A DNA stretch of 64,000 bases from Clostridia bacterium (GTDB lineage: Bacteria; Bacillota; Clostridia; Oscillospirales; QAKW01). The notes under the pieces are model-generated. The model searched no databases. It saw nothing but the letters and a program-made list of their open reading frames with translations, and was not told where the DNA came from. Below, piece by piece: positions 10,370 to 58,240 of this stretch. How positions within the stretch are numbered: position 1 is the stretch's first letter; every line of letters begins with the position of its first letter. The translations under genes were made by a program, and so were the position numbers. Location of the stretch: contig JAFSHF010000031.1 in assembly GCA_017440465.1 (NCBI GenBank), forward strand, positions 6,064 to 70,063, in the 5' to 3' direction.

Positions 10370-10406
10370 AAAAGCAGTGTGGAAATTTTTCCACACTGCT
10401 TTTTTT
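10370..10406 (+). terminator. Intrinsic terminator after the 6667 SLH gene (first of two near-identical hairpins)
   Basis: GCAGTGTGGAAA/TTTCCACACTGC stem plus T-run; second copy at 10696-10730. Confidence 0.8.
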
Positions 10407-10575
10407 AGACGGTCAAAAAAGTCCCCGACCGCAGAAAAAGAAAAATTAAAAGCAGTGGAGACCAATTTATAAAGTTTTTCATAGAGAAGGGGTTATACTC
10501 TTTCTCTATGTTCTTTTATAAGGAAAAAATCCGCATAGCAATGCTTATTTTGATTGGATTTTTTCTGCTATCCGC

Positions 10576-10621
10576 CAAACCGCTCTCTACCGTACCTATG
10601 TACGCCGACGAGAACGGTTTG
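10576..10621. repeat. L-hairpin copy 1 (conserved loop TACCGTACCTATGTACGCCGAC, stem CAAACCGCTCTC/GAGAACGGTTTG)
   Basis: Read directly; flanks TTTTTCTGCTATCCGCC and GACGAATTC are shared with the other copies. Confidence 0.75.
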
Positions 10622-10811
10622 ACGAATTCGGAAACATTTTTGCTCCGTCTCCCCAGCGTGTCAAAGATCCAAAGATTTTTTCTTTGACACGCTGTAAAAG
10701 CAGAGTGGAAAAATTTCCACACTGCTTTTTATCGTTCTCCGGTTGCTTTTCTTTTTGAAAATTGTTATAATTAAAATGTATAGAGAAAAATAAAATAGGA
10801 AGGAACGTTTT

Positions 10812-13800
10812 ATGAAACGAATCATTTCTGCCGTTTTAATTTTGATAATGCTCATCCCCCCGATGGTCCTGCCCGCCGAGGCGGCGACCTTGGTGCAAGC
10901 CGATTCAGCGGTGCGTATTACCGCCGATAAGGCGGTGGCAGCGGTCGGAGAGACAGTGACCGTAACCGTAGCGTTTGAGAATATCCCTGCCTGCGGTGCG
11001 GTGGATTTTAATCTGGTCTATGATACGGAATATCTGCAGGCACCGGCGAAAAGTGATGTCTCGATGAATATTGGGGGGACGGTAAAAGATCGAAATCCCG
11101 CCTATAGTATCGACGAAAAGACGTCCGAAGAATATGCGGGGCGGCAAGCGGTGAAGGTGGTTGCCGCGGGTGATTCCAATTGCCTGAAGGGAAGCAGCGG
11201 AACGCTTTTCACAGTCAAATTCGTTGTGGCGAATGAAGCCCCGGCTCCGGGGATCCCTCTTGCGTTTTTCGGGACCTTTAGCGATCTCTACAGTAATCGG
11301 GATCTGCGTAATACCATCCAAGTGTTCAATACCCATATTGCCACCGCCGATCCGACCAAAGAGGTAACCGCGGTTGCTCTGAAGCAAGCGCCGACCAAGA
11401 CCGAATATGTGCAGGGGCAGGCGTTGAATTTGGAGGGCGGCCGCCTTTTGGTCAACTATGACGATAGTTCCTCTCAAGAGGTGTATCTATCCTTGGCGCA
11501 GATCACCCAATATGATTTTACCAAGCTTGGAACCCAGACCGTCAAGGCAGAGTATGCAGGCAAAGAGGTCTCTTTCGAGATCCAAACCGAAGCGTCCGTG
11601 CTCTCTTCCATCTCGGTCGGCCAGGTGCCGGCGACGGTCGAATATATCCAAGGAAAAACAGCTCAATTGGATCGTTCCGAAGGCGTCCTGCTGCTCCATT
11701 ATACCGGCGGCATTGTTAAGACCTTGGAGATGTCCGATGCGGAGGTCACCCTCTCCGGCTATGATAAGGATCAGTTGGGTGTTCAGAAGATCAAGGTGCA
11801 GTACGGCGGCTTTGAAACCGAATATAAGATTGCGGTAGTGAAAAAAGCCATCAGCGATATCGACGTCCGCACCCCGATGGTCTGCGATGCCTGCGGGAGC
11901 GAGTGGAGTGCTTTTGATTTAATTCAGGCGGCAGACGCAAGTGCCGATCCCTACTCGATGGACTTCAATGAGCGGCTGACTTATATCAAAAATACCGCCA
12001 ATAACGTCACCTGCCCTTCCGACACCTGCGCAGGCGCGACCTTTTCCACCAAAATGAAGATGGTCTATTTTGTCGGCGAAGACTTCGATGTGGGAAACGC
12101 CAAACTGTTTGTCACCTATTCCGGCGGTACCACCGAAGAGATCGATATGACCTTGGATATGGTGGAGTTCAAGAACACCTTTGCCACCACTCAAAACGTG
12201 GAGGTGGCGTATGGAGCGCAATGGATGTTGATCAAAAACGTCCAAACCAGAAAAAAAGAAGCCACCGCCATCACCGTCACCCGGAAGCCCAAGACCGAAT
12301 ATGTGAAAGGGCAGTCCTTCGACCGCACCGGCGGAATCATCCATGTGGAATATAATGACGGCTCGGAGGAAGACCTCCCGATGGAGCATGAGGATGTCCG
12401 AGTCCATTATAGTGGGATGGATGAGCTGGGCGAACATAGAGTCACCGTTTTTTATGAAAGCCAACAAGCCTACTTTTATATCAAAGTCATTGCGCGGGTG
12501 GTGAAATCCATCGCCGTTGATCCGGAAGCAACTTCGACCTATGTCCGAGGGCGGGAGCCGGACCCCGACACCAAATTGCTGGTAACCTATAACGACGATG
12601 AAACAGAGACCGCTTATCTTAGAAACGCAACCGTCGAAGGCTATAATTCCGAGCAGATCGGGCTGCAGGTGCTGACCATCACCTACGGCGGTGTGAATTG
12701 TAATTGGCCGGTCACGGTGGAAGAAAAAGTGGTGACCGCGCTGGAAGTGGTGGGTACTCTGCCTACCACCGTTTTGGAAGAAACAGAACTGAATTTAGAG
12801 GGTTGCACCCTCACCGCCACCTATAACGAAGGGAAGTTGGTGGAAGAAAATATCGCCATCACCCCCGATAGGATCAAGAACTTTGATAAAAGTCAGTGCG
12901 GTTTGCAGACCGTCACCATTGAGTTTGGAGAGGGGACCGTCACCTTTGAGATCACCGTCCTTGAAAAATCGCTGACTTCCATTGAGGTGGAGGGCGTCAA
13001 GGAGCAATATCTGCTGATGGATGCGTTGGACCGCTCGGTCGGCAAGATCAAGTTGATCTATAATAACGGTACCGTTGATTATATCGACTTCAGCGATGAA
13101 AACATTTCGGTGGAAGGCTTCCAAAGCGATGTCGCCGGAGAGCAATTGGTAACGGTGGAATATCAAGGGTTTACCGATACGTATCCGGTAACGGTCTACA
13201 TCGAGATCTTGAGCATCTCTGTTACCCCGCCCAAGAAAACCGCCTATATAGAAGGCGAACCGCTGGATCTGACCGAAGGGTTTCTTCATATCACCCAACC
13301 GAACGGAACGATCAATATACCCCTCTCCGAGGGGATGGTTTCGGGGTATGAAGCCGATCGTATCGGCGAGCAGACCCTCACCATCGAAGTGGGCGAGCAT
13401 ACCGCCGACTTCAAGGTTACAGTCAGAGAGAAGCAATTAACGGGCATTACCGTCAGCCCCGAAACCATCGATCATAACGAATGGGAAGAATTGGACTTCT
13501 CCCAAGTCGTCGTAACGGCGTGGTACGATAATAATACATCCAAGACGGTAACAGAAGAAGCAAGTAAAGCCGCGTACGATACTTATGTTATCTACACATA
13601 TGAGGGAAAAACCGCGACATTAAATGTAAATGTCATCAAACGAGCACCTATTTTCATCGAATGGGCAGAAGAACCTCAAAAGAGAACCTATTTTGCGGGC
13701 GAACCGTTGCTCAAAGACGGAACGATTCGGGTGCATTATAACGATCAGTCGAATGAGCAGCTCCCTTTGACCGATGAAAATGTATCGATCATCGGAGATA

Positions 13801-15140
13801 CCAATGTGGAAGGAGCGGAAACGGTCTATGTGAAATATAACGATTTAAGCCCCATTAGCTTTGAGATCACCGTCGTTCCGGTGGTGGTTGAGAAGATCGA
13901 GATTACTACCGAACCTGAGCGTAGCTATATTGAAGGGCAGCCTTTGAATGTGGCAGGCGGGATGATCCTCATCACCTATAATAATGAGGATACCGAGCCG
14001 CTGGCGATGGATGCCGCGGGGGTCACCCTTTCGGGCTATGATCCCAATAAGATCGGGGAGCAGACCGTCACCGTTACCTACGGCGGAAAAACCGCTACCT
14101 TTACCGTCAACGTTCGCGCCAGAAAGGCAGTAAGCATCCGTATATCGACTCGACCCAAGACGGAGTACTTAGAGGGCAAGGATACTGCGCTGAATTTAGC
14201 GGGCGGAAAACTGACCGTGTATTATGATAATAATACTTCGGCAACCATCAATCTTACTGACTCGCAGGTTACAGTAAGTGGTTTTAAAGCGACGCAGATC
14301 GGGGATCAAACGATCACAGTAAGCTACCCCGGCGTTTCATCTGCGACCTTTACTATTACGATGAATAAAAAAGCGGTGGAATCCATCGCCATCGCCGCGA
14401 TGCCGACCAAGATGATGTATCGGCAGGGCGTCGAAAAATTTGATCCCGCCGGCGGGTTGATTACGGTTTTTTATAATAACGATACCAAAGAGACCGTCCA
14501 TCTTTCCAAAGCAACCGTCAGCGGATTTTCCAATCTCTTTGCAGGGGATGTCACCGTCACCGCAGTCTATCAAGGCTCTGCGGTGGAGTTTAAGGTGCTG
14601 ATCCTTGCGGAAAATCCCTTTAAAGACGTCAAGGCGAACGAATATTATGAGACGCCGGTTCTTTGGGCGGTGACCAAGGAGATCACCAAAGGAACGGCAG
14701 AGGATACCTTCAGCCCCAACGATGAATGTACCCGCGGCCAGATCGTCACTTTCCTCTGGCGTGCCGCCGGGGAGCCCGCGACCGAAACCGCCAAAAATCC
14801 GTTTAAGGATGTCAAAAAAGGCGAATATCATTATAATGCCGTTCTTTGGGCGGTGGAAAACGGCATCACCAACGGGATGGATGCCACCCACTTTGCTCCC
14901 GATGCCTCTTGTACCCGCGGGCAGGTCGTCACCTTCCTTTGGCGGGCGGCAGGAGAGCCTGCGCCCGAAACCGCCAAAAATCCGTTTAAGGATATCAAAA
15001 AGAGCGAATATTATTATAACGCCGTTCTTTGGACGGTGGAAAACGGCATCACCAACGGAATGACCGACACGACCTTTGCGCCGAATTCAACCTGTACGCG
15101 CGGACATATAGTCACCTTCCTCTACCGCACCTATGACTAA
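10812..15140 (+). CDS. Giant surface protein: N-terminal cohesin-like domain, about 13 bacterial Ig-like repeats, three C-terminal SLH-like repeats
   Basis: Signal peptide MKRIISAVLIL; cohesin-like GETVTVTVAFENIPACGAVDFNLVYD; ~80-aa repeats (KTEYxxGxxLxLxGGxLxVxY..GxQxVTVxY); three near-identical NPFKDVK..WAVENGITNG..CTRGQVVTFLWRAAGEP units. Confidence 0.85.
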   Translation: MKRIISAVLILIMLIPPMVLPAEAATLVQADSAVRITADKAVAAVGETVTVTVAFENIPACGAVDFNLVYDTEYLQAPAKSDVSMNIGGTVKDRNPAYSIDEKTSEEYAGRQAVKVVAAGDSNCLKGSSGTLFTVKFVVANEAPAPGIPLAFFGTFSDLYSNRDLRNTIQVFNTHIATADPTKEVTAVALKQAPTKTEYVQGQALNLEGGRLLVNYDDSSSQEVYLSLAQITQYDFTKLGTQTVKAEYAGKEVSFEIQTEASVLSSISVGQVPATVEYIQGKTAQLDRSEGVLLLHYTGGIVKTLEMSDAEVTLSGYDKDQLGVQKIKVQYGGFETEYKIAVVKKAISDIDVRTPMVCDACGSEWSAFDLIQAADASADPYSMDFNERLTYIKNTANNVTCPSDTCAGATFSTKMKMVYFVGEDFDVGNAKLFVTYSGGTTEEIDMTLDMVEFKNTFATTQNVEVAYGAQWMLIKNVQTRKKEATAITVTRKPKTEYVKGQSFDRTGGIIHVEYNDGSEEDLPMEHEDVRVHYSGMDELGEHRVTVFYESQQAYFYIKVIARVVKSIAVDPEATSTYVRGREPDPDTKLLVTYNDDETETAYLRNATVEGYNSEQIGLQVLTITYGGVNCNWPVTVEEKVVTALEVVGTLPTTVLEETELNLEGCTLTATYNEGKLVEENIAITPDRIKNFDKSQCGLQTVTIEFGEGTVTFEITVLEKSLTSIEVEGVKEQYLLMDALDRSVGKIKLIYNNGTVDYIDFSDENISVEGFQSDVAGEQLVTVEYQGFTDTYPVTVYIEILSISVTPPKKTAYIEGEPLDLTEGFLHITQPNGTINIPLSEGMVSGYEADRIGEQTLTIEVGEHTADFKVTVREKQLTGITVSPETIDHNEWEELDFSQVVVTAWYDNNTSKTVTEEASKAAYDTYVIYTYEGKTATLNVNVIKRAPIFIEWAEEPQKRTYFAGEPLLKDGTIRVHYNDQSNEQLPLTDENVSIIGDTNVEGAETVYVKYNDLSPISFEITVVPVVVEKIEITTEPERSYIEGQPLNVAGGMILITYNNEDTEPLAMDAAGVTLSGYDPNKIGEQTVTVTYGGKTATFTVNVRARKAVSIRISTRPKTEYLEGKDTALNLAGGKLTVYYDNNTSATINLTDSQVTVSGFKATQIGDQTITVSYPGVSSATFTITMNKKAVESIAIAAMPTKMMYRQGVEKFDPAGGLITVFYNNDTKETVHLSKATVSGFSNLFAGDVTVTAVYQGSAVEFKVLILAENPFKDVKANEYYETPVLWAVTKEITKGTAEDTFSPNDECTRGQIVTFLWRAAGEPATETAKNPFKDVKKGEYHYNAVLWAVENGITNGMDATHFAPDASCTRGQVVTFLWRAAGEPAPETAKNPFKDIKKSEYYYNAVLWTVENGITNGMTDTTFAPNSTCTRGHIVTFLYRTYD

Positions 15141-15301
15141 ACCGTTGAAATGGGCGCATCTTCCGATTTTTTGCCCCTCGGCATATCATTATATAGCCGA
15201 GGGATCAAAGAAATCGAAACCTGCATCCCATTTGAACGGTTTCGACCGAGAGCAAAAATGAAATAAAAAATCGACCTTGAATTTCAAGGTCGATTCTTTT
15301 T
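15141..15301 (+). repeat. Module X copy 1: conserved leader, two hairpins and a terminator (candidate small RNA / 3'UTR element)
   Basis: Starts at the stop codon of the 10812 gene. Hairpin 1 is 15175-15203 (CCCTCGGC/GCCGAGGG, loop ATATCATTATATA). Hairpin 2 is 15214-15245. Terminator is 15271-15301. Confidence 0.6.
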
Positions 15302-16262
15302 GTAGGGAACAGGTTTTCCATCCCGCTATGATCCGTACCAAATGAATTGGTACGAAACAATCCAAACGATTTGGGTGTACCAAATGAATTGGTACGGAAG
15401 CATACAAATGATTTGTATATGCACAATTGAATTGTGGATCGAAACACAAATGATTTGGGGTACCAAATGATTTGTTAGGCACAGATATTTAATTAATTTG
15501 TAGGGGACGATTGTCTTCATCGTTCCGCTTTTGCCGTACCAAATGAATTGGTACGAAAGCATACAAATGATTTGTATGTGCACAATTGAATTGTGGATCG
15601 AAACACAAATGATTTGGGGTACCAAATGATTTGTTAGGCACAGATATTTAATTAATTTGTAGGGGAAGATTGTCTTCATCGTCCCGCTTTTGTCGTACCA
15701 AATGAATTGGTACGAAACAATCCAAACGATTTGGGTGTACCATATGAATTGGTACGAAAGCATACAAATGATTTGTATGTGCACAATTGAATTGTGCACG
15801 ATCCCTTTGCAACATCAAAAAATTCATCGCAAGCCGTTGTTTGCTCGATATTTTTTGTGTTGCGGCAGCTGCTAACCTGCTCCCTTCATCGTCCCGTTTG
15901 CAACATCAAAATATTCATCGCGCGGTGCGCTCGATATCTTTTGTGTTGCGGCACCTGCTAACCTGCTCCCTTCATCGTCCCGTTTGCAACATCAAAATAT
16001 TCATCGCGCGGTGCGCTCGATATCTTTTGTGTTGCGGCACCTGCTAACCTGCTCCCTTCATCTGCCACTGGCAGCGGTCGCAGTCGCAACCACAGGCAGC
16101 GGTCACAGTCGCAACCAAATGAATTGGCACGAAAAACACAAAAGATTTGTGTTTCATACCCCAAATGAATTGGGGGTACCAAATGATTTGGTAGGTGACC
16201 GCCCAAACGAATTGTGGACAAAAAAAAGAAGTGTGCATCGAAACACAAATGATTTGGGGGTT
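15302..16262. repeat. CAAWTGAWTTG palindrome mosaic, locus 1 (about 23 cores, in 159-198 bp higher-order units opened by GTAG hairpins)
   Basis: Examples: GTACCAAATGAATTGGTAC at 15335-53, 15377-95 and 15536-54; also CATACAAATGATTTGTATG, GCACAATTGAATTGTGC and CCCCAAATGAATTGGGG. GTAG hairpins at 15302, 15500 and 15659. Confidence 0.85.
15806..16062. repeat. Tandem repeat, 3 units of 91/86/~80 bp, embedded in locus 1
   Basis: Units start at 15806, 15897 and 15983. Units 2 and 3 are identical where both are present. Each unit can form a long hairpin GCAACATCAAAA...TTTTGTGTTGC. Confidence 0.85.
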
Positions 16263-16338
16263 AGTGACATTTTTCGCCATTGCTTTTTGGCAAAAGATTT
16301 GATATGATTATAGTATCAAGAGAAAGGAATTTTAGAGA

Positions 16339-17397
16339 ATGAAACGAATCATTTCTTGTTTACTGATTTTTGTAATGCTGATGGCCGCCATTCCCGCATC
16401 GGCGGCAGCGGATAAAACCGCGCGTTTGGTGCTGGATGCGCCGTATGGTGTGGTCGGTCAGGAGTTGGAAGTCCAAGTCCGTGTGGAAAACCTTGTCGAA
16501 TGTGCCGGGTTCACTATCGTTTTAGAATACGATCAGAACGTTTTGAAACCCTTAGATTTTAAAGAAGAGAAGCTCGGTGGATTGATGGCCTCCGAAGAAA
16601 AGGGAAAAGGAGTCTATGCATTAATATGGATAGGGTTTGATGATACCAAAAACGATATCGTAACGATTAAAGGCGATGTTGCTATCGGAACGTTTAAATT
16701 CAAAGTGCCTTCCATGCCTAAAAATGGAATGATTGCGATAGATATTAGAGAAGAAGATACAATGTTTGCCGATAATTCTCAAGAAACCGAAGAAATCGAT
16801 TATTCATTTGATCCTGTGTTCATTCCTATGTATAAAAACCATCCCTTTACCGATGTCACGGCTGATTGGTATAAGGAAGCGGTATTGTTTGCATACAATA
16901 ATAATTTGATGAACGGTATGGGCGAGAATAAGTTCAAGCCCGATGACGCCACCACCCGTGCGATGTTGACGACCATTCTTTACCGCTATGAGGGGGAACC
17001 CGATGTTTCGGCAAAAGCCCCCTTTACCGATCTGGAGCAGAATTGGTATAAAACCCCCATCAACTGGGCATACGAAAAAGGCGTTGTCAAGGGTATGACC
17101 AACACGACCTTCGCGCCGGAGGAAAAGGTTACCCGCGAGCAGATCGCGGTGATGATGTATCGTTATGCCGAGGGCAAGAAGCAGGATGTTTCTCAAAGAA
17201 AGAAGATCTCTTCTTTTTCCGATGCCAAAAAGGTTAGCTCTTGGGCAAAAGAAGCGATGGAGTGGGCGTATGCCGAGGGCTTAATCACCGGCAACTCCAT
17301 CAACGGCAAGGTACTGCTGGATCCTCAGGGCAACGCTACCCGCGCTCAGATCGCCACCATTCTGATGCGGTACATTAAGAACGCGGCCGAACAATAA
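16339..17397 (+). CDS. Cohesin-domain protein with three SLH repeats
   Basis: Signal peptide MKRIISCLLIF (first 18 nt identical to the 10812 gene); cohesin-like GQELEVQVRVENLVECAGFTIVLEYD; SLH repeats. Confidence 0.85.
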   Translation: MKRIISCLLIFVMLMAAIPASAAADKTARLVLDAPYGVVGQELEVQVRVENLVECAGFTIVLEYDQNVLKPLDFKEEKLGGLMASEEKGKGVYALIWIGFDDTKNDIVTIKGDVAIGTFKFKVPSMPKNGMIAIDIREEDTMFADNSQETEEIDYSFDPVFIPMYKNHPFTDVTADWYKEAVLFAYNNNLMNGMGENKFKPDDATTRAMLTTILYRYEGEPDVSAKAPFTDLEQNWYKTPINWAYEKGVVKGMTNTTFAPEEKVTREQIAVMMYRYAEGKKQDVSQRKKISSFSDAKKVSSWAKEAMEWAYAEGLITGNSINGKVLLDPQGNATRAQIATILMRYIKNAAEQ

Positions 17398-20460: not shown

Positions 20461-20610
20461 AAAATCCTTTCAAAAAGAATTCGATCATAAAAAATCCGCG
20501 TCTGCGGATTTTATCCATTGTTGCGCCATCGGCGCACATCGTTTTTGCCTATAGACAAAAAAATACCTATGAAAATACGTATATTTTCATAGGTATTATA
20601 CTTCTTGTAT

Positions 20611-21327: not shown

Positions 21328-21447
21328 AAAAATCACTTCCTTATAGTTTATTCTAAACGATTTTACTTTAGAAGACAAGATTTAATTGAAAAATTGGTTG
21401 ATTTCGTGTATATTAGAAATAGAAATTAAAAAGAAAGGAGTTTTTAT

Positions 21448-23478
21448 ATGAATACACCCATCAAGCAGTTATACGGCATCGGTGCGACCCGCGAAAAACT
21501 CCTTTTGAAATTGGGGATCGAAACCTATGGGGATCTGCTCCGTTGCTATCCCCGCCGCTATGAAGATCGGTCGGTGGTGATCCCCATCGATGAAGCGTCG
21601 ATGCATATGGGGGAGCCCATCAGCATTGTCGCCACCGTGGTGGGCGTTCCCGAAGAACGCCGTATCCGCGGCGGGCGGATCTTGAGCCGTTTTTCGGTGG
21701 AGGACGATTCGGGGCTGATGACCCTGACCTATTTCAATAATCCTTATATTAAAGATAAACTCAAGGTGGGAAAGACCTTTAATTTCTATGGGGTCTGCGA
21801 CCCCAAGATGCTGCTGCATATGGTGGCGCCCCAAGCGGAAGAACTCAAAGCGGGGGAGCAACCCCGCATCCTGCCGGTCTATCCGCTGACTGCGGGGCTG
21901 AACCAGCCTCAGATGCGCCGCTGGGTGGGGCAGGCGATGGCGCGTCTTGCGGGCAAACTGCCCGATCCTCTGCCCGCGCGACTGCGGGAAAAATATGGAT
22001 TAATGGAACTCAATGATGCGTTGCAGGCGATCCACTTTCCCAAGGACCACGCCGCCATCGCGGCGGGGCGGCGGAGGCTGATTTTTGAAGAACTGCTGTA
22101 TTTCCAATTAGGGGTCAACCTTTTCTCCCGCAGGGAAAAGGACCAAAACCGCTTCCCCATCGGCAAGAGCGACGGCGGTTTTTTGGCGTTGCAACCCTTT
22201 ACCCCCACGCCCTCTCAGCAAACAGCGGTGGCAGAGATCCTGGCAGATATGCAGGGAGATTTTGCGATGAACCGCTTGCTGCAGGGCGATGTGGGCAGCG
22301 GCAAGACCTATGTGGCGGGCGAGGCGGCGTATGCCGCCCTTTCGGCAGGCTATCAGGTGGCGATGATGGCGCCCACCGAGATTTTGGCCCGCCAGCACGC
22401 AGACTATTTCCGCCCGCTCTTTGAACAGCTCGGGTATTCCACCGACCTTTTGGTGGGGTCGCTGACCGCCAAGCAAAAGCGGGAAGCCTATGCCCGCCTG
22501 CAAAGCGGCGAGACCCGCCTCATCATCGGCACCCACGCGTTGTTGCAGCAGAAGGTGGAATTTCAACAATTGGGCTTGGTGATCGCCGACGAACAGCATC
22601 GGTTCGGCGTCCGCCAGCGCGCCGCCTTGGCGGCAAAAGGGCAAAAGCCCCATATTTTAATTATGTCTGCCACCCCCATTCCGCGCACTATGGCGCTGAT
22701 GGTATGGGGCGATCTGGACCTTTCGGTGCTGGAGGGCTTGCCCTCAGGCAGAAAGCCCATCCAAAGCTTTTTGGTGGATTCCACCTATCAGGAGCGGTTG
22801 CTGGGCTTTATGGATAAGCAGATGGAAGAAGGCGGCCAGATCTATATCGTCTGCCCGCTGGTGGAGGAAAATCCCGAGGCGGATCTCCAGAGTGCCGAAG
22901 CGTTGTTTGAAGCATTGAAGGAGCAGTACGGCGATGCCGCCGATATGATCCACGGCAAGATGAAGGCCGCTAAAAAAGACGAAGCGATGGCAAAATTTGT
23001 GGCGGGGGAAACCAAAGTGCTGGTCTCTACCACCGTGATTGAAGTGGGCATCAACGTCCCCAATGCGACGATGATGGTCCTGATGAACGCCGAGCGGTTC
23101 GGGCTTTCCCAGCTCCATCAGCTGCGCGGGCGGGTCGGGCGTGGGGAGAAGCAATCCTATTGTATTTTGGTCTCCGACCATCAAAATCCAAAAACGCGGG
23201 AACGGCTGGATTATTTCTGCTCCACCACCGATGGCTTTGCCATTGCCGAAAAGGACCTGCAACTGCGCGGCCCCGGCGATTTCCTCGGCGATATGCAGCA
23301 TGGGATGCCCCAAATGCAGTTGGCGGGGCTGACGAGTGATATGGAACTGCTGACCCTTTCCAACCGTTGCGCCAAGCGGATGCTGGAATTTGATCCCGAC
23401 CTGCAGGCGCCCTATAATCAAGCCATCCGCCAAAAAGTGTTTGAACTTTTTAACGATCAAAGCATCATTTTTAATTGA
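21448..23478 (+). CDS. recG: ATP-dependent DNA helicase RecG
   Basis: Wedge domain plus SF2 helicase motifs GDVGSGKT, DEQHRFG, QLHQLRGRVGRG. Confidence 0.95.
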   Translation: MNTPIKQLYGIGATREKLLLKLGIETYGDLLRCYPRRYEDRSVVIPIDEASMHMGEPISIVATVVGVPEERRIRGGRILSRFSVEDDSGLMTLTYFNNPYIKDKLKVGKTFNFYGVCDPKMLLHMVAPQAEELKAGEQPRILPVYPLTAGLNQPQMRRWVGQAMARLAGKLPDPLPARLREKYGLMELNDALQAIHFPKDHAAIAAGRRRLIFEELLYFQLGVNLFSRREKDQNRFPIGKSDGGFLALQPFTPTPSQQTAVAEILADMQGDFAMNRLLQGDVGSGKTYVAGEAAYAALSAGYQVAMMAPTEILARQHADYFRPLFEQLGYSTDLLVGSLTAKQKREAYARLQSGETRLIIGTHALLQQKVEFQQLGLVIADEQHRFGVRQRAALAAKGQKPHILIMSATPIPRTMALMVWGDLDLSVLEGLPSGRKPIQSFLVDSTYQERLLGFMDKQMEEGGQIYIVCPLVEENPEADLQSAEALFEALKEQYGDAADMIHGKMKAAKKDEAMAKFVAGETKVLVSTTVIEVGINVPNATMMVLMNAERFGLSQLHQLRGRVGRGEKQSYCILVSDHQNPKTRERLDYFCSTTDGFAIAEKDLQLRGPGDFLGDMQHGMPQMQLAGLTSDMELLTLSNRCAKRMLEFDPDLQAPYNQAIRQKVFELFNDQSIIFN

Positions 23479-23579
23479 CAAAATTTGCTTGAATTATTTT
23501 CTCCCTTTGATCCAAAATAATTAGCGTAGACCGAAAAAACAACTTTTCGCTCTAACTCTAATAAGGAGGTGCTAATGAA

Positions 23580-23762
23580 ATGGATAAAGCTGTTAAGAGT
23601 AATGCAAAAGCAGGCCTTGATAAGATGAAGTTCGAGGTTGCCCGCGAGATCGGTGTTGATCTGAAGCAGGGTTATAACGGCGACTTGACTTCTGCTCAGG
23701 CCGGTCATATCGGTGGCCAGATGACCAAGAAGTTGGTTGAGCGTGCCGAACAATCCCTGTAA
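23580..23762 (+). CDS. Small acid-soluble spore protein, alpha/beta type
   Basis: KFEVAREIGV and GHIGGQMTKKLV signature blocks; strong SD AAGGAGG. Confidence 0.85.
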   Translation: MDKAVKSNAKAGLDKMKFEVAREIGVDLKQGYNGDLTSAQAGHIGGQMTKKLVERAEQSL

Positions 23763-44415: not shown

Positions 44416-44451
44416 AAGCAGGTCGCAAGACCTGCTTTTTCTATTATTGTA

Positions 44452-45102: not shown

Positions 45103-45141
45103 ATGAAAAAGCAGACCGATGGGTCTGCTTTTTCTATGTGA

Positions 45142-45729: not shown

Positions 45730-45902
45730 TATGCGGTAACACCTGCCTTTACTTTTGCCAACGCAATATATTCTTCCATAGAAATCTCTTTGTTTAAGAG
45801 CTTGCGGCACCATTCTTTGGTTTGCTCATCCACCGAAAACCCTTCCATTTCCAAGGAGAATGTGGCGTTTTTGATGCAACGTTCCATTTGTTTTTCGCTC
45901 AT
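45729..45902 (-). CDS. VbhA-type antitoxin
   Basis: Inhibitory (S/T)xxxE(G/N) motif as SLEMEG; translationally coupled to Fic; start set at the ATG at 45902. Confidence 0.8.
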   Translation of the reverse strand: MSEKQMERCIKNATFSLEMEGFSVDEQTKEWCRKLLNKEISMEEYIALAKVKAGVTA

Positions 45903-48763: not shown

Positions 48764-48866
48764 AATTTTCCCCTTTATATATGATAAAACGAACTTAATA
48801 TCCAATCTGTTGCAAAATTTTCAAAAAAAGACACAGAATGAACTGTGCCTTTTTTATTCTGATTTC

Positions 48867-48972
48867 AAAACGGTTGCAAAAGCGAGATAGATTTTGCCGA
48901 GGCGATCCCGACGGCGTATGTGATACGCCGAGCGGTCGGATCGGCGGAATATAGCCGCTTTTTAACCGTTTT
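48867..48972. repeat. Nested ~105 bp foldback abutting the proS stop codon (possibly a distant E-family member)
   Basis: Paired arms AAAACGGTT/AACCGTTTT, AAAAGCG/CGCTTTT and GGCGTAT/ATACGCC; motifs GCAAAAGCG, GAGC and GGCGGAAT resemble E1. Confidence 0.5.
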
Positions 48973-50412
48973 TTAGTATGCTTTGCCCCAGTAGACTAAT
49001 TTCTTGGCGGGCTTTCCGCAGCAAACGCAAACATCGCTGACCTGCTCCTGATCCTCAAAGGGCATACAGCGGGAGCTGATCTCTGCTTCGTCCTTGAGTT
49101 GCACCTCGCAGGCTTCATCCCCGCACCACATGGCGCGGATAAAGCCGGGCTTGGTGGCGGCGATCTCTTTGATCTGATCAAGGTTGCGGGCGGTATGGGT
49201 CATTGCCAGGCGGCGATCCAATGCGCGCTGATACATATTTTCGTGGATCTCCTTGAGCAGAGCGGGGATGGTTTCGGTCAACTTCTCCAGCTCCACAGTG
49301 ATCTTCTCGCCGGTATCGCGGCGGGAGAGGATGCAGACGCCGTTTTCGATATCGCGGGGGCCCAGCTCCAAGCGGAGGGGAACGCCCTTCATTTCATATT
49401 CGGCAAATTTCCAGCCGGGGCTGTTGGAGGATGCGTCCATCTTGACGCGGCAGACGGCTTTCAGCTCGTTCATCACTTCTTCTGCCTTTTCCAGAACGCC
49501 CTCCTTATGCTGGGCGACCGGGACGATCATCACCTGAGTGGGCGCGATATAGGGCGGGATGACCAAGCCGTTATCGTCGCCGTGGGTCATGATCACCGCG
49601 CCGATCAGGCGGGTGGTGCAGCCCCAGGAGGTCTGGTGGGGATAGGCAAGCTTATTATCCTTATCGGTAAAGGTGACGTCAAAGGCGCGGGAGAAGCCAT
49701 CACCAAAGTAATGGGAGGTACCGCTCTGCAACGCCTTACCGTCGTGCATCAGCGCTTCGATGGTATAGGTGGCTTCGGCACCTGCAAATTTTTCTTTATC
49801 GGTCTTTTTGCCCTGCACCACGGGGATCGCCAGATACTCTCTGCAGAATTTGGCGTAGGTCTCCAGCATCTGAATGGTCTCTTTTTCCGCTTCTTCTTGG
49901 GTAGCGTGCAGGGTATGACCCTCCTGCCATAAGAATTCGCGGGTACGCAGGAAGGGGCGGGTGGTCTTTTCCCAGCGCACTACCGAGACCCATTGGTTAT
50001 ACAGCAGCGGCAGATCTCTCCAGGATTGGACTACGTCCTTAAAATGATCGCAGAACAAGGTCTCGGAGGTGGGGCGGATGCAGAACCGCTCCTCCAGCTT
50101 CTCGCTGCCGCCGAAGGTGACCCAGGCCACCTCGGGCGCAAACCCTTCCACGTGGTCTTTTTCTTTATTCAAAAGGCTCTCGGGGATCAGCATCGGCATA
50201 CAAATGTTTTCATGCCCTAAGTCCTTGAACATTTTATCCAAAGCACCCTGCATCAGTTCCCACATCGCAAAGCCGTAGGGGCGGATGATCATAAAGCCCT
50301 TCACATTGGAATAGGCGGCAAGATCCGCTTTCTTGACAATGTCGGTATACCATTGGGCGAAATCCACATCCATCGATGTGATCTCTTTTACCATTTTCTT
50401 ATTATCGCTCAC
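48973..50412 (-). CDS. proS: Proline--tRNA ligase (archaeal/eukaryote-like type)
   Basis: 479 aa; class II aaRS motifs; C-terminal zinc-binding-type domain ending WGKAY. Confidence 0.95.
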
Positions 50413-53912: not shown

Positions 53913-55553
53913 ATGATAACAGGTAAGCAGTATTGCGAGATGGTCATCTCCGGATGCAATCATATCAGCAACCAGAAAGCAGCCATCAATGCATTGAACG
54001 TGTTCCCGGTCCCCGATGGGGATACCGGTACCAATATGTCCCTGACCATCTCTGCCGCCGCACGCGAACTGCAGAATTTGGGGGATTGCACCATCGCCCA
54101 GGCATCGGATCGTGCCGCAGGCGCGATGCTCAAGGGCGCGCGGGGCAACAGCGGTGTTATTTTGTCCTTGCTCTTCCGTGGTATTTCCAAGGGCTTGAAG
54201 GATAAAGAGACCGCCAACGCCGCCGATTTTTCCGCAGCGTTGCATCTGGGTGTCAAAGCCGCCTATCGCGCGGTAATGAAGCCCACCGAGGGTACGGTGC
54301 TGACCGTTTCCCGCGTGGCGGCGGAAAACCTTTCCAAATATTTAGAGAATGCCCCCGAAACCACCGCCGAGCAGGCGTTGGCTTATTATGTGGAGCAGGC
54401 AAACGACGTTTTGCAGCAGACCCCCGAAATGCTGCCTCAGTTGAAGCAAGCAGGGGTGGTCGATGCGGGCGGTAAGGGCTTTGCCGTTGTGATGGAGGGT
54501 ATGCTCTCCGCACTGCGCGGTCAACCCATCGAGCCGCAGGAAGCACCCGAAGCGGTTGCTGATTCGGTGGTGGATGAACTGCCGATGCGGGAAGAGGACA
54601 TCACCTTTACCTATTGCACCGAGTATATCGTCACTGTGGATGAGACCGCCAAGAAGGATAACCCCGCCGATCTGCGCTCCTACTTGGAATCCATCGGTGA
54701 TAGCGTGGTCTGCGTACCCGATAACGAGATCATCAAGGTCCATGTCCATACCAACCACCCCGGTCGCGCCATCGAAGAAGCGCTCCGCTACGGTTCGTTG
54801 GTCAATTTGAAGATCGATAATATGAAGGAAGAGTTCCGCGCCCGCCAAAAGAGCGCACCCGCCGAACCCGAAAATGCCTTGGCAGAGCCTACCAAAAAGT
54901 ATGGCTTTGTCTCGGTCGTTGCCGGCGCCGGTCTGGCGGCGGTCTGCAAGGATCTGGGTGTCGATACCGTTGTGGAAGGCGGTCAGACCATGAACCCCTC
55001 CACCGCCGATATCCTGGCGGCGGTCAACCGCACCCCCAGCGAAGTCGTCTTCGTTCTTCCCAATAATAAAAATATCATTATGGCGGCAGAGCAGGCAAAA
55101 GAGCTCTCCACCGCAAAAGAAGTGGTGGTCATCCCCAGCAAGACCGTGCCCCAAGGCATCACCGCCATGCTTGGCTTTGATGAGACCTTGGAGACCGAGG
55201 CTCTTGCCGAAGCAATGACCGCCATGCTGGAGACTGTCAAGACCGCGCAGGTCACCTATGCCGCCCGCGACTCTGTTTTCGATGAAAAGGAGATCAAGGA
55301 AGGCCAACTGCTGGGCTTGATGGAGACCAAAGTCACCTTTGTGGAAGATCAGATGGAAGACGTTGTCCGCAAGCTCTTTGAAGAGCTGGGTAAGGACGGC
55401 GGCTCCTATATCAATGTCTACTATGGTGAGGATGTCACCGAAGAGCAGGCCGAGGCCATCACCGCGCAGATCCAAGCGCAGATGCCTCAGGCGGAGGTAA
55501 TGTGTTTGCCCGGAGGGCAACCGGTGTACCATTATATCTTTTCTGTGGAATAA
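53913..55553 (+). CDS. yloV: DAK2-domain fusion protein YloV
   Basis: N-terminal DAK2 (DGDTGTNM) plus C-terminal DegV-like region, 546 aa. Confidence 0.9.
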   Translation: MITGKQYCEMVISGCNHISNQKAAINALNVFPVPDGDTGTNMSLTISAAARELQNLGDCTIAQASDRAAGAMLKGARGNSGVILSLLFRGISKGLKDKETANAADFSAALHLGVKAAYRAVMKPTEGTVLTVSRVAAENLSKYLENAPETTAEQALAYYVEQANDVLQQTPEMLPQLKQAGVVDAGGKGFAVVMEGMLSALRGQPIEPQEAPEAVADSVVDELPMREEDITFTYCTEYIVTVDETAKKDNPADLRSYLESIGDSVVCVPDNEIIKVHVHTNHPGRAIEEALRYGSLVNLKIDNMKEEFRARQKSAPAEPENALAEPTKKYGFVSVVAGAGLAAVCKDLGVDTVVEGGQTMNPSTADILAAVNRTPSEVVFVLPNNKNIIMAAEQAKELSTAKEVVVIPSKTVPQGITAMLGFDETLETEALAEAMTAMLETVKTAQVTYAARDSVFDEKEIKEGQLLGLMETKVTFVEDQMEDVVRKLFEELGKDGGSYINVYYGEDVTEEQAEAITAQIQAQMPQAEVMCLPGGQPVYHYIFSVE

Positions 55554-55769
55554 CCGTTGAAATCGGCGCAGACCGACAGGAATAAGGAAAGAACCTGCCT
55601 TGGCAGGTTCTTTTTTATGTCTTTTCCGTTTTTTCACCTTCGGCATATCATTATATAGCCGAAGGATGAAAGAAACGAAAATCTGCATCCAATTTGAACG
55701 GTTTTAGGGAAGAGATTTAAAAAGAATGAAAAAGAACCGACCTTGAAAGGTCGGTTCTTCTATTTTTTT
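55554..55769 (+). repeat. Module X copy 2
   Basis: Starts at the stop codon of yloV with the same CCGTTGAAATSGGCGCA leader. Hairpin 1 is 55637-55665 (CCTTCGGC/GCCGAAGG, identical loop). Hairpin 2 is 55676-55707. Terminator is 55734-55769. Confidence 0.6.
55591..55616 (+). terminator. Intrinsic terminator of yloV
   Basis: GAACCTGCC/GGCAGGTTC stem plus T6. Confidence 0.8.
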
Positions 55770-55777
55770 AAGGGGCT

Positions 55778-55980
55778 GTACCAAATGAATTGGGAGGTAC
55801 CAAATGATTTGTTAGGAAGGCGAATAAATGAATTATGCATAGAGCGTACCAAAAGAATTGGTACGGAAACATACAAATGATTTGTATATACCCCAAATGA
55901 ATTGGGGGGGGTACCAAATGAATTGTATATACCCCAAATGAATTGGGGGGACCAAATGATTTGTTAGGAAGGTGCACAAA
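55778..55980. repeat. CAAWTGAWTTG palindrome array, locus 3 (9-10 cores)
   Basis: GTACCAAATGAATTGGGA, CATACAAATGATTTGTAT, ACCCCAAATGAATTGGGGGG (twice), GTACCAAAAGAATTGGTAC and others. Confidence 0.8.
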
Positions 55981-56168
55981 TTCGACCTCTACATGTTATT
56001 TATAATTCGTCTGCGAGGCAGACACCGAAATTATTCATTATTCATCAGCGTAAGCGACTTCATTATTCATTGAAAATTCTGTCGAATGAATGATGAATAT
56101 TGAATAATGAAAAATGAATAATACAAAACAAAAATCCCATCGACTTGCAGTCGACAGGATTTTCGTTT

Positions 56169-56256
56169 TGGCGGAGGAGAAGGGATTCGAACCCTTGTGC
56201 CTTTTGGGCAAACGGTTTTCAAGACCGCCTCGTTATGACCACTTCGATACTCCTCC
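56169..56256 (-). tRNA. tRNA-Ser (anticodon UGA) with encoded CCA
   Basis: Hand-folded: acceptor GGAGGAG/CTCCTCC, anticodon stem GCGGT/ACCGT with loop CTTGAAA, long variable arm TGCC/GGCA, T-arm AAGGG-TTCGAAT-CCCTT, 3' GCCA. Confidence 0.9.
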
Positions 56257-57247: not shown

Positions 57248-57256
57248 TAGAGAACA

Positions 57257-57358
57257 TCAGAGTAGATCATTATGGGTTAAGTGCTTGAAGGACGGGGAGT
57301 TGCCTTCGGGACGAAGAAAGGCGGATGCCTTTTGCCGTATGGTGATCGCATCCCGCTG
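57257..57358 (+). promoter_or_regulatory. THF (tetrahydrofolate) riboswitch
   Basis: AGAGUAGAUCAUU..GGGUUAAGUG..GACGAAG..GGUGAUCGCAUCCCGCUG resembles the THF-I consensus as I recall it; followed by an SD-sequestering hairpin ACCTCCT/AGGAGGT plus T-run; upstream of folT. Confidence 0.7.
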
Positions 57359-57420
57359 CCGAAAAAGATAGGACGATACCTCCTGATTTTCGAAGTGGAA
57401 TGAAGGAGGTATTTTTTATT

Positions 57421-57957
57421 ATGAATAGCAAAAAACTCAGATTGTTGTGCCTTACCGCGGTGATGGCGGCGGTCTATGTGGGGCTGGATTTCCTTTCGGA
57501 AAGTGCCAGCGCGGTGTTCGGCGGGTCGATGAAAATTTCGCTGAGCGGCTTGCCGGTGGTCATCGTTGCCATCGTTGCAGGGCCCCTTTGGGGCGCGGTG
57601 ACGGGATTTATCGGCGAGCTTGTTGTCCAATTATGGATCTATGGGCTGATGCCGACCACCCTGCTTTGGGTATTGCCCGCGATGGCGCGGGGGCTTGTGA
57701 TGGGCTGGTTGTTCCGCGCTTTTAAAAAGAGCACCCATCCTGCCATCCTTGCGGTGGAAACGGTGCTTTCTTCGGTGGTGGTGACGCTGCTCAATACCGT
57801 CGGCATCCTGATCGACCAGACCATCTACGGCTATTCCACCTATATTGCCACTTTGGTCAAGATCCCCCTGCGGATCGCCACCGGCGCGGTCTCCGCCATC
57901 ATTTTTGCGTTGATCCTGCCGATCGTTCTGCGGTCGTTGAAAAAGTACATCAGATGA
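57421..57957 (+). CDS. folT: Folate-family ECF transporter S component
   Basis: About 6-TM, 178-aa protein behind the THF riboswitch; start at the ATG at 57421, inside track ORF 57400..57957. Confidence 0.8.
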   Translation: MNSKKLRLLCLTAVMAAVYVGLDFLSESASAVFGGSMKISLSGLPVVIVAIVAGPLWGAVTGFIGELVVQLWIYGLMPTTLLWVLPAMARGLVMGWLFRAFKKSTHPAILAVETVLSSVVVTLLNTVGILIDQTIYGYSTYIATLVKIPLRIATGAVSAIIFALILPIVLRSLKKYIR

Positions 57958-58028
57958 CAAAAATCTCTTAAAAGCGAAACTTGCAATAAAACAGCAGAAA
58001 AAATAATTATTCTTCTGCCCGTAAAAAA

Positions 58029-58066
58029 GCACCACAGACTCATTTTTGAATCTGTGGTGCTTTTTT
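58029..58066 (+). terminator. Intrinsic terminator of folT
   Basis: GCACCACAGA/TCTGTGGTGC stem plus T6. Confidence 0.8.
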
Positions 58067-58071
58067 GTTTA

Positions 58072-58240
58072 GTGAAGTATTTTGCCGAAAGCAAAATGTG
58101 AAGTTATGGCTTTCGCCATAGTGAAGTTTTGCTCTACGCAAAGTGAAGTTAAGTTTGCTCACTACGCCGATAGGTGTAACTTCACTACGAAGGAACTTCA
58201 CTGCCATCGGCAACTTCACTTGCCCGTAAGGGCAAACTTA
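58072..58240. repeat. GTGAAGTT / AACTTCAC foldback array B
   Basis: GTGAAGT(T) at 58072, 58098, 58121 and 58143. AACTTCAC at 58178, 58194 and 58212, plus a degenerate AACTTA. The last unit TTGCCCGTAAGGGCAA parallels TTGCCCATCGGGCAA in array A. Confidence 0.8.

Follow-up and report, generated by a model that had tools for sequence, protein, structure and literature searches.

The stretch of DNA analysed here (the window) comprises 64,000 nucleotides of a Clostridia bacterium (assembly GCA_017440465.1, contig JAFSHF010000031.1, positions 6,064 to 70,063), has a G+C content of 52% and opens with dnaN (C-terminal part), yaaA (S4 domain), recF, gyrB and gyrA (1-6553), a gene order that places it beside the replication origin, oriC. 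It also encodes a large S-layer homology (SLH) protein at 6667-10341, two cohesin/SLH proteins, an alpha/beta small acid-soluble spore protein (SASP), recG, an Arc-like ribbon-helix-helix (RHH) protein, proS, fakA, a CBAH hydrolase, a folT-like energy-coupling factor (ECF) component, radC, clpB, recA, recX and spoIVB; this gene set fits a cellulosome-bearing, spore-forming member of the Clostridia. The subject of this work is the set of hairpin-forming repeats that lie between these genes: arrays of a CAAATGAWTTG palindrome, GTAG-tagged "head" hairpins, a module called X, larger foldbacks (E, N, FB and one behind proS) with their L-hairpins, and arrays of the words GTGAAGTT and ATGATGT (Table 1). 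Measured against a curated gene list, the named repeats account for 3.66 of the 7.72 kb of intergenic DNA (47%). A sequence-only reading of the window had described these repeats, all of which are present where it placed them, and had fairly estimated that they fill most of the spacer DNA that is neither promoter nor terminator; it further proposed that five sequence-unrelated families share one grammar, an invariant word or loop next to variable self-complementary arms, and one placement rule, proximity to stop codons.

Proteins identical to those of the window are carried only by metagenome contigs, and the nearest genomes in a species-level collection are metagenome-assembled genomes (MAGs) labelled "Eubacteriales bacterium"; among them, JAZSBU is about 91% identical to the window over syntenic stretches and JAZTXG about 85-89%. 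Comparisons were made with about 280 kb from related MAGs and same-species metagenome contigs; individual loci carry L numbers, of which L001-L003 are the same-species contigs and L120 is GCA_045587805.1, JAZNCZ010000102. A search for contigs encoding the folT-like gene found none.

The palindrome core CAAATGA[A/T]TTG, with one mismatch allowed, occurs at 40 positions in four arrays, compared with about 1.5 in shuffled sequence, and the TGA lies on the + strand in 39 of the 40 units, which are thus arranged head-to-tail. Each palindrome measures 19 nt and the unit period is 19-24 nt, about two helical turns; an example hairpin unit is GTAC-CAAATGAATTG-GTAC, and other outer arms are CATA/TATG, TGCA, ACCC/GGGT and AACA/TGTT, with no conserved GTAG or CGTC tag. 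Collected from the window and eight related genomes, 273 distinct units have a practically invariant 11-nt centre, and the four positions on each side of it are variable but complementary: Watson-Crick pairs are formed at the four outer positions by 216, 200, 187 and 150 units, when 127, 95, 76 and 68 are expected from column composition, all four pair types are present at the two outermost positions, and no pairing signal is found past the fifth pair. For 150 sampled units, 84.9% of the cells were paired, against 66.0 +/- 1.1 in shuffles (0 of 500 reached the observed value), and the covariation score of 0.413 compares with 0.126 in the controls and with 0.03-0.14 when the partners were slid by 1-3 columns.

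The same organization is found in other families. The spacers of the word arrays contain a perfect stem of at least 4 bp in 10 of 14 cases, against 0.69 expected, a count reached by none of 2000 shuffles; in the stem of X, positions 1, 11 and 13 change on both sides among 15 copies, of which 14 preserve a G.G mismatch at position 6; in three copies of FB, 21 of 104 predicted pairs carry double changes, seven of these in the terminal stem. The proposed grammar, and the excess of compensated arms that goes with it, therefore held up against shuffled controls in the palindromes, the word-array spacers, the X stem and FB. Covariation together with a conserved mismatch means that the folded strand matters, RNA and DNA being left undistinguished; because the stems covary and the mismatches are conserved, the elements must be recognised or maintained in the form of folded single strands.

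The palindrome arrays differ in length between relatives. At the site of array 3, JAZTXG has 2 units, the window 8 and JAZSBU about 15, and the differences among close relatives are insertions or deletions of whole units bounded by TGCACAAATGA, which indicates unequal recombination or slippage between conserved cores; chimeric units such as AACA-core-GGGT indicate exchange within the core. None of the arrays touches a stop codon. The promoter-like site (TTGGCA-16-TATAGT, 16287-16314) near the end of array 2 belongs to the cohesin/SLH gene 16339-17397, and array 3 abuts the TTGACA -35 hexamer of a small membrane gene (25598-25771). Tandem modules of 86 and 25 nt accompany arrays in more than 10 related loci and are inverted in L023.

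Several other identities were considered for the palindromes. A literature search for the 11-mer returned only what appear to be PCR primers; the core CAAATGAATTG (e.g. 15339-15349) is identical to a 16S rRNA segment regarded as universally conserved, the target of primer 907R (AAACTCAAATGAATTGACGG), and this identity is probably a coincidence. A two-core pattern scan of 596 Gb found tandem arrays with a 21-nt period and CAAATSATTTG or CAAATGAATTG in Bacteroidales, Tannerella, Paracoccaceae and Anaerolineaceae (L004, L006, L024, L029, L047, L057, L059); the Paracoccaceae loci are AT-rich (40% G+C) and have no open reading frame (ORF) of at least 120 aa in the surrounding 5-5.5 kb. These cross-phylum matches were rejected as true relatives, being most likely tandem repeats captured by chance in 596 Gb; their recurrent 21-nt period is odd. 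The RHH protein encoded by the gene next to array 3 was also rejected as the array-binding protein, since JAZTXG lacks that gene and none of the other arrays has it nearby. An iteron reading was rejected on unit size and on the lack of a rep gene in the window, and a CRISPR reading on the period of 19-24 nt, words of 7-11 nt, spacers of 8-17 nt and lack of cas genes in the window; CRISPR repeats measure 24-48 nt, with unique spacers of similar length (PMC3733652).

The heads have the form TTGTAG-GGGACGGG-TTT-CCCGTCCC, with GTAG at the 5' foot of a GC-rich palindrome, and their stems vary in a compensated way (GGGAGGGG/CCCCTCCC, GGGCGGGG/CCCCGCCC, GGGACGATG/CATCGTCCC and GGGGTGCCGA/TCGGCGCCCC), as do those of about 24 further copies in related loci; the copy at 25318-25352 folds with a z score of -4.3. 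The window has four singlets only; inverted doublets about 25 nt apart, resembling REPINs (paired repetitive extragenic palindromic, REP, sequences), occur twice in L120 and several times in L065. A metagenome scan with the head hairpin matched 12 contigs from unrelated taxa of differing G+C content, often as doublets. By these features the heads appear to belong to the GTAG-tagged REP class of Di Nocera et al., whose termini often provide the stop codon of flanking ORFs (PMC3733652). Twice in the window X is followed by a terminator, then by a GTAG hairpin and finally by a palindrome array, as one polar composite, and the parts recur with the same order and polarity in L011, L019, L033, L092, L107, L113 and L120.

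Module X provides the clearest case of placement at stop codons. It is delimited by CCGTTGAAAT and ATTTGAACGG (termini TAAAACCGTTSAAAT), with terminal inverted repeats of 13-16 nt that hold one conserved mismatch, and in all 15 forward copies the bases 5' of CCGTTGAAAT are TAA(A). The preceding stop belongs to genes for scaffoldin, FakA, NagB, Jag, Asd and RNase Y; behind a GH18-like gene (L011, L019) the reading frame misses the TAA and runs on to the TGA of X itself, which adds Val-Asn-Arg. X thus stands behind seven gene families, always at the same end and in the same orientation toward the gene, and for several genes it is kept at the orthologous position in two or three species. The stop codon is part of the element, since the inverted repeat extends into the flanks (TAAAACCGTT...AACGGTTTTA); in copy 1 the left terminal repeat TAAACCGTTGAAAT holds the TAA of the SLH/cohesin scaffoldin gene 10812-15140. 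TA flanks X on the left in 15 of 15 copies, within the TAA; the right flank is TA in 10 of 16, and the related loci offered no empty site for X. PMC12306157 cites work in which translation in E. coli was lowered by REPs located within 15 nt of a stop; X, by analogy, probably influences its host genes to some degree.

The long form of X corresponds to the short form plus a 50-nt module (GCGCA followed by GACCG...AGGAATAAGG-terminator) that also forms the left part of E elements; in the long form a GCGCAGACCG...terminator module is nested. As a side observation, the motif GCG(C/T)AGACCG with an A-run and AGGAATAAGGA lies upstream of the SASP gene (23478-23580), overlapping its ribosome-binding region, and the motif is also found directly before the terminator hairpin in E2, E3 and X-long (23782, 24032, 24450, 55566); it looks like a promoter-and-leader module minus the coding part. 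In integron attC sites an imperfect palindrome is bracketed by the core sites R'' (RYYYAAC) and R' (GTTRRRY), in association with intI; X was rejected as an attC site because its ends CCGTTGAAAT and ATTTGAACGG do not fit this pattern and no integrase is encoded in the window.

For the larger foldbacks, the names L and E were matched to those of the sequence-only reading by guess: L is taken as the hairpin with the conserved loop TCTACCGTACCKATGTACGCCGAC (about 10575, 23905 and 24350), E as the large foldbacks at 23763-23988, 24000-24470, 32784-33058 and 10404-10696. The L-hairpins fold with z scores of -4.7 (the copy in E1) and -4.3, and E2 with -9.3. The spacer that holds E1 is 470 nt long in the window and about 140 nt in JAZSBU (L107), where it has a single, different terminator. 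The two tandem E-type foldbacks, recognised from repeats D12, D18, I1, I11 and I18, each include a terminator hairpin together with an L-hairpin; at the same site one or two E copies, lacking the nested foldback N, occur in sister species, and the L-hairpin that N interrupts in the window is intact there and in E2.

FB has 25-nt terminal inverted repeats that are 96% complementary, with termini RGGTRACAAG, and its left arm holds the TGA stop of gene 31699-32790. In JAZTXG (L099) it lies between the recG promoter and the ribosome-binding site, flanked by TA on both sides, and the window has the corresponding empty site (21378-21448, between GAAATT and AAAAAG); in JAZNEH (L055) a third copy, also flanked by TA, has different but self-complementary termini. 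The flanks in the window are GA on the left and TA on the right. FB and N have an 86-nt centre in common (79% identical) and unrelated arms. The foldback behind proS, with terminal repeats AAAACGGTT...AACCGTTTT, sits between the proS stop (48973-48975) and the terminator; the same-species contigs L001-L003 have it, whereas JAZSBU (L023) does not, its terminator directly adjoining the stop. Thus FB, X and the proS foldback have terminal inverted repeats, and FB is found at different loci and with an empty site; judged on such features, X, FB/E and the proS foldback would be TA-flanked elements of the MITE (miniature inverted-repeat transposable element) kind.

The word GTGAAGTT occurs 12 times against 1.4 expected, in two arrays (A and B) of three forward and three reverse words. 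Both are copies of a single composite element: they align end to end, in the order TTTTGC-loop-GCAAAA hairpin, three words, centre, three inverted words, TTGCCC-loop-GGGCAA hairpin. The right end of A lies 2 nt from the stop of gene 26003-26563 (- strand). The complex of array B splits an ancestral terminator, the halves of which (about 57961-57972 and 58273-58290) flank about 290 nt of new sequence in the window; only the intact terminator AAAAAATCTCTCAACCGAATGGTTGAGAGATTTTTT is found at this site in JAZTXG (L081). The ATGATGT array is located between the stop of an M20 peptidase gene (34446-34448), 1 nt away, and a terminator (34536-34565). The spacer hairpins of A, B and the ATGATGT array form one class, TTGC...GCAA or TGGC...GCCA. 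In folding, the ATGATGT array does not surpass shuffles (z -0.5), nor do the left halves of the GTGAAGTT arrays (z -0.1 and -0.6); what is regular about them is the pattern, not the thermodynamics.

At gathering thresholds Rfam recognises in the window only a tetrahydrofolate (THF) riboswitch, a cobalamin riboswitch and one tRNA, and in E-value mode there was no match for the palindromes, X, E or FB. A permissive scan aligned Gut-1 (RF01706), over the whole model (positions 1-77), with three of the four GTGAAGTT half-arrays, at 37.0, 35.6 and 34.9 bits, below the gathering score of 50 bits (E 1e-3 to 5e-3 for the whole window); the ATGATGT array reached 16 bits. The Gut-1 consensus has GUGAAAU four times with three variable hairpins between, and some seed members, located past a stop and a terminator, have GYGAUAU, with an inverted half-array of AUAUCAC words between them and a convergent stop (PMC2864571). 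The seed rows BAAZ01000095 and BAAZ01025322 have the same layout as the GTGAAGTT arrays, which are sub-threshold variants of the Gut-1 motif. CGATATG/CATATCG arrays of the same layout occur in relatives (L084, L068, L094, L120), at loci that gave no Gut-1 match at E <=0.01.

Table 1. Positions of the repeats and other features in the 64-kb window (z, folding z score)
Feature	Position	Strand	Remarks
37-nt terminator hairpin copies at E1	10367-10403, 10696-10732		inverted/direct repeat I2
E1-like mosaic insert	10404-10696	+	one L-hairpin (~10575-10625); between the two 37-nt terminator hairpin copies
X copy 1, short form	15138-15242	+	98 nt plus TAAA; z -7.5
GTAG-tagged GC hairpin (head)	15298-15334	+	follows terminator 15265-15299; pattern TTGTAGGG[GA]A
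Further head copies	15496-15535, 15655-15694, 25320-25352	+	same pattern
Spurious ORFs over repeats	15326-15799 (-), 25022-25546 (-), 15984-16307 (+), 32830-33060 (+)		
Palindrome array 1	15335-15800	+	17 units, including a 159-nt tandem duplication
86-nt x3 and 25-nt x2 tandem modules	15802-16117	+	Tandem Repeats Finder (TRF); each 86-nt unit a hairpin, z -4.4
Palindrome array 2	16112-16260	+	6-7 units; ends just upstream of a promoter-like site
Two tandem E-type foldbacks	23763-23988, 24000-24470	+	directly after SASP stop (23760-23762)
Nested foldback N	24171-24349		interrupts second L-hairpin
Palindrome array 3	25355-25540	+	8 units, last flipped
GTGAAGTT array A	25822-26002		mini-hairpin spacers; z -5.5; Gut-1 34.9 bits
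FB foldback	32784-33058	+	fills whole MFS / M20-peptidase spacer; z -11.6
ATGATGT x4 array	34449-34533	+	words within 34450-34515, ~20-nt spacing
Cobalamin riboswitch	35594-35762	-	above Rfam gathering score
proS foldback	48862-48972	-	terminal repeats AAAACGGTT...AACCGTTTT; z -6.2
X copy 2, long form	55551-55704	+	begins on TAA stop of fakA-like gene 53913-55553
Palindrome array 4	55776-55970	+	8 units
Array 4 with AT-rich ATTATTCAT/ATGAATAAT word foldback	55776-56135	+	then tRNA 56172-56256 (-)
tRNA	56172-56256	-	Rfam
THF riboswitch	57256-57360	+	upstream of folT-like ECF S component; above Rfam gathering score
GTGAAGTT array B	58070-58242		z -6.9; Gut-1 37.0 and 35.6 bits, full model
Array B with hairpin 58244-58279	58070-58282		with new terminator 58023-58066

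These comparisons leave less independence among the families than had been claimed: "five sequence-unrelated families" was an overstatement, the GTGAAGTT and ATGATGT arrays having one architecture, X, E and the proS foldback having termini and modules in common, and X standing in a composite with a palindrome array. They also show that the elements come, go and replace one another from species to species, and even among strains with 98%-identical flanks: orthologous sites in sister species or strains lack the proS foldback, array B, E1 and array A. In L119 and L122, with flanks about 98% identical to the window, the whole spacer 25776-26003 is a different allele, with breakpoints at both stops, in which a CGATATG unit stands in place of array A.

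The placement rule stood in part. X follows it without exception; stop codons also adjoin the proS foldback and E2 (0 nt each), the ATGATGT array (1 nt) and array A at its right end (2 nt), and one lies within the arm of FB; array B and every palindrome array touch none, and beyond X the stop-adjacent placements are single cases. Terminators in the window commonly begin 2-40 nt past the stop, and with 3' ends so compact anything inserted upstream of a terminator must sit on the stop. The rule is therefore real for X and elsewhere largely a by-product of compact 3' ends and whole-spacer replacement. The same facts could be taken further, to mean that there is no common rule at all, only independent local duplications and terminator-like hairpins whose closeness to stops reflects very short 3' untranslated regions (UTRs): placement evidence is replicated for X only, the arrays named above lie off stops, and the L119/L122 allele replaces the spacer from stop to stop. 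We consider this very unlikely as a general account, since X occupies the same end and orientation behind seven gene families, the families recur at many loci in many genomes, and shuffled controls come nowhere near the arm and spacer statistics; where X and the grammar are concerned, it is already largely refuted.

The explanation that we rate highest, with about even confidence, is that structured selfish repeats of the REP/REPIN, bacterial interspersed mosaic element (BIME) and MITE kind build up in safe havens at 3' ends and lengthen through unequal recombination. A community of non-coding, hairpin-forming repeats particular to the lineage, in three superfamilies, would have colonised the intergenic DNA of the window. 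The first would comprise the TA-flanked foldbacks (X, FB/E/N and the proS foldback), inserting as units, often into the TA of a stop codon or between stop and terminator, with A-rich or TGA-containing terminal repeats that re-create the stop. The second would comprise word-plus-mini-hairpin arrays of the Gut-1 type (GTGAAGTT, ATGATGT, CGATATG), located downstream of stops or terminators and typically as inverted half-arrays between convergent genes. The head-to-tail arrays of 19-nt palindromes centred on CAAATGAWTTG, often after a GTAG-tagged REP hairpin, would form the third. Spread would be catalysed in trans, by a Y1 enzyme of the REP-associated tyrosine transposase (RAYT) type for the GTAG hairpins and by a TA-duplicating transposase for the foldbacks, and copies would persist where they are harmless, that is, in the few bases between stop and terminator, in terminator hairpins themselves and in convergent spacers. 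Most of the apparent placement rule would then result from such persistence, not from a dedicated stop-codon mechanism, and effects on RNA (3' UTR structure, ribosome stalling at the stop) would be secondary. In favour of this explanation are the different loci and the empty site of FB, the elements missing from orthologous sites, the nested insertions (N in an L-hairpin, a terminator module in X-long), the covarying and compensated stems with folding z scores from -4 to -12, the GTAG tags and REPIN-like doublets, the position of X behind seven gene families, the whole-unit length changes and chimeric units of the arrays, and the published accounts of stop codons provided by REP termini, of RAYTs in Clostridia and of new REPs arising near the rayt gene.

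Several observations weigh against this explanation. The terminal repeats of FB covary between copies (L055 and the window), unlike the substrate of a sequence-specific transposase, and fit selection on the folded strand better; X has one orientation to the upstream gene in 15 of 15 copies, which a TA target alone does not explain; and the TA flanks are imperfect (right side of X, 10 of 16; GA to the left of FB in the window). The apparent concentration of arrays around oriC, described below, is not obviously expected of a purely selfish genome-wide repeat. Gut-1, which the GTGAAGTT arrays resemble, was rated a likely RNA by its discoverers (PMC2864571). Lastly, the hairpin-recognising enzyme that the sequence-only reading had suggested was not found in the DNA scanned: no Y1/RAYT, IS110, DDE or serine/tyrosine recombinase was detected by Pfam among about 46 ORFs of the window, a tblastn search for IS200 and RAYT in 281 kb of related DNA (window included) gave nothing, this being a weak search with approximate query sequences, and a Pfam summary of 150 ORFs from related loci held no multi-copy transposase family. 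All-against-all clustering of 952 ORFs for multi-copy genes returned only spurious ORFs over repeats. A doubtful RAYT-like fragment lies beside a head hairpin on an unrelated contig, L134 (tblastn E 0.035 with an approximate query; no Pfam match), and RAYT group 1 has been reported from Clostridia (PMC5581495).

An alternative is that the repeats work as RNA, the foldbacks as 3'-UTR modules (an exonuclease block or a termination-coupled regulator, the stem starting on the stop codon) and the arrays as multi-hairpin RNAs whose invariant single-stranded word or loop would bind or titrate an RNA-binding protein, in the way of CsrB/RsmZ with CsrA. Structured RNAs classically show covarying stems next to an invariant loop or word; X is always in sense between stop and terminator and is retained by orthologues of two or three species, FB too is in sense to the flanking transcription unit in both known copies, the GTGAAGTT half-arrays read GUGAAGUU toward the centre and so are in sense to the nearer convergent gene, the match of these halves to Gut-1 points the same way, and the effect of stop-proximal REPs in E. 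coli offers a precedent. We nevertheless regard a function as RNA as unlikely, on the basis of strand tests. Among the 273 palindrome units, G:U mismatches on the TGA (sense) strand are not in excess over A:C mismatches (50 vs 66); the antisense RNA folds better than the sense RNA by 5-7 kcal/mol for X1, X2, both FB copies and the proS foldback; and the terminator of X-long lies inside the foldback, so that the full stem would rarely be transcribed. In addition, unit number and order in the arrays are not conserved, strains 98% identical replace an array outright, and the ATGATGT array and the left GTGAAGTT halves fold like shuffles. The strand tests weigh against a function of the sense RNA, and the sense orientation and orthologous retention of X keep the RNA alternative alive; the more specific suggestion that the repeats serve as RNA stabilisers or insulators found no support in these tests.

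A second alternative concerns the palindrome arrays. In JAZTXG, five of the seven array-bearing 8-kb chunks among the matches listed are on one 107-kb contig that spans the origin, three being syntenic with the window and two carrying yidC-jag-mnmE or rny-bacA; in JAZSBU, seven of the 11 among the matches listed either share synteny with the window or belong to the other flank of oriC. Thus 12 of 18 array-bearing chunks in the two closest MAGs are origin-proximal among the matches listed, an estimate drawn from fragmented MAGs with genome sizes not known, and the concentration of the arrays around oriC is to be taken as a lead, not as a result; related loci bearing on it are L050, L033, L041, L065 and L120. 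In L120 (1-3398) the small membrane gene of the window (25598-25771) directly follows rnpA-yidD-yidC-jag and precedes X and arrays, an order suggestive of a rearrangement or inversion that spans the origin and has its breakpoints in repeat arrays.

From these data the arrays could be DNA-level sites that organise the origin, as a centromere-like or cruciform platform to which a protein specific for hairpins or palindromes would bind, for instance for anchoring in sporulation or for control of replication, the other families being ordinary mobile repeats. The four arrays in a window that begins at dnaN-yaaA-recF-gyrB-gyrA, the 11-nt core invariant in at least nine species-level genomes, the spacing of about two helical turns and the RHH gene adjoining array 3 would all suit this reading, which we hold to be quite unlikely: a dimeric protein binding duplex DNA leaves the covariation of four non-conserved outer pairs unexplained, one locus has from 2 to 15 units and the arrays are recombination mosaics, the RHH gene does not accompany the arrays in JAZTXG or elsewhere, and the clustering carries the limits given above. 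REPs driven by RAYT also accumulate near their rayt gene, where new REPs arise (Nunvar et al., PMC2817692). A related reading, to which we likewise give only a small chance, is that the palindrome arrays form an origin-proximal hairpin platform, maintained over at least nine uncultured Clostridia-type species, that is read in the folded single-stranded state, as DNA at the origin or as RNA, by a dedicated protein, and this may extend to the word arrays of the Gut-1 type. If true, roles in organisation or segregation of the origin in a spore-former, or in titration of a nucleic-acid-binding protein, would be possible, and the orphan Gut-1 motif would be supplied with a biological context.

Some further features of the window touch these repeats less directly. 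The repeat arrays give rise to long spurious ORFs of 76-174 aa on both strands, one of which, with a 76-aa product inside FB, is annotated as a gene in public assemblies. Small unassigned hairpins of the TTGCC..GGCAA or TGCGC..GCGCA class are found in 3' spacers (39665-39709, 20520-20536, 34590-34614, 56020-56130), together with short word repeats (GCAAGATTTTT twice, and ATTATTCAT/ATGAATAAT). A YpsA/SLOG-like gene (24486-24955, - strand) appears to be split into two ORFs (24486-24806 and 24779-24955) and is probably a frameshifted pseudogene; JAZTXG lacks a 1.4-kb segment (24020-25425) that holds this gene and the Arc/RHH gene (25062-25262). The region 40674-45813 encodes a WYL/WCX regulator, an RHS-repeat protein, a small helix-turn-helix gene product (44204-44413) and a Fic/DOC protein, and may be a toxin, immunity or defence islet.

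The biology of REP/REPIN and MITE sequences has been worked out almost wholly in Proteobacteria; here, about half of the origin-proximal intergenic DNA of an uncultured, cellulosome-bearing, spore-forming gut lineage consists of such elements. A terminal repeat of X supplies the stop of seven unrelated housekeeping genes, always in one orientation. In practical terms, the repeats break metagenome assemblies, appear to mediate inversions around the origin and create spurious ORFs of 100-175 aa on both strands.

Among known systems, MITEs (Correia elements of Neisseria, RUP of Streptococcus pneumoniae) and the ERIC/IRU foldbacks resemble X and FB, which are foldbacks of 95-275 nt with terminal inverted repeats and TA flanks, are intergenic and transcribed with their neighbours, differ in location between species and can form the end of an ORF. 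Correia and RUP elements duplicate TA. Unlike in MITEs, the terminal repeats of X and FB covary instead of being fixed, and X is set apart by its conserved G.G mismatch and by the strictness of its position and orientation at the stop; no parent insertion sequence is known for X or FB. BOX elements of S. pneumoniae have the structure boxA-(boxB)n-boxC, with internal units of 45 nt, and the succession of a GTAG head, n palindromes and a promoter-proximal end follows a similar plan of head, variable tandem units and tail; the units here measure 19-24 nt, number up to about 16-17, have no sequence similarity to BOX and are apparently origin-proximal.

The GTAG heads share with the REP/REPIN sequences of E. 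coli, Pseudomonas and others, which go together with RAYT, the GTAG tag, a GC-rich stem-loop of 8-10 bp with covarying stems, an extragenic multi-copy distribution and, in relatives, the inverted doublets about 25 nt apart; known REP termini also supply stops, and new REPs cluster near the enzyme gene. They differ in that the window has four singlets only and no RAYT gene was seen in the window or the related DNA scanned, and the dominant palindromes are AT-rich, lack GTAG and CGTC and have an invariant loop, not an invariant stem foot. As in BIMEs and the neisserial intergenic mosaic elements, small palindrome and linker mosaics fill the spacers, with module number and order varying by strain; the REPs of BIMEs alternate in orientation, whereas 39 of 40 units in the window are head-to-tail with variable linkers, and the modules are unrelated in sequence and hosted by a Clostridia-type spore-former. 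The analogy with REP/BIME organisation drawn by the sequence-only reading thus applies to the GTAG hairpins, the REPIN-like doublets, the modular mosaic spacers and the filled and empty sites, and fails for the palindromes.

Gut-1 (RF01706; Weinberg et al. 2010) resembles the GTGAAGTT arrays in its repeats of a 7-8-nt word, its variable hairpins and its inverted half-array between convergent stops; the word here is GUGAAGUU, the scores fall below the curated 50, the ATGATGT and CGATATG arrays miss the model, and the arrays behave as fast-turnover DNA with different words at one locus, which has not been described for Gut-1. An orphan small RNA since 2010, Gut-1 would here be one word-variant of a fast-evolving word-plus-hairpin class that swaps words at a single locus. 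Most repeats of the window are new relatives of known classes (GTAG REP/REPIN and TA-flanked MITE-like elements) together with a Gut-1 variant, and the distinctive family is that of the CAAATGAWTTG arrays, which are long and head-to-tail, with an invariant loop, covarying stems and an apparent clustering around oriC.

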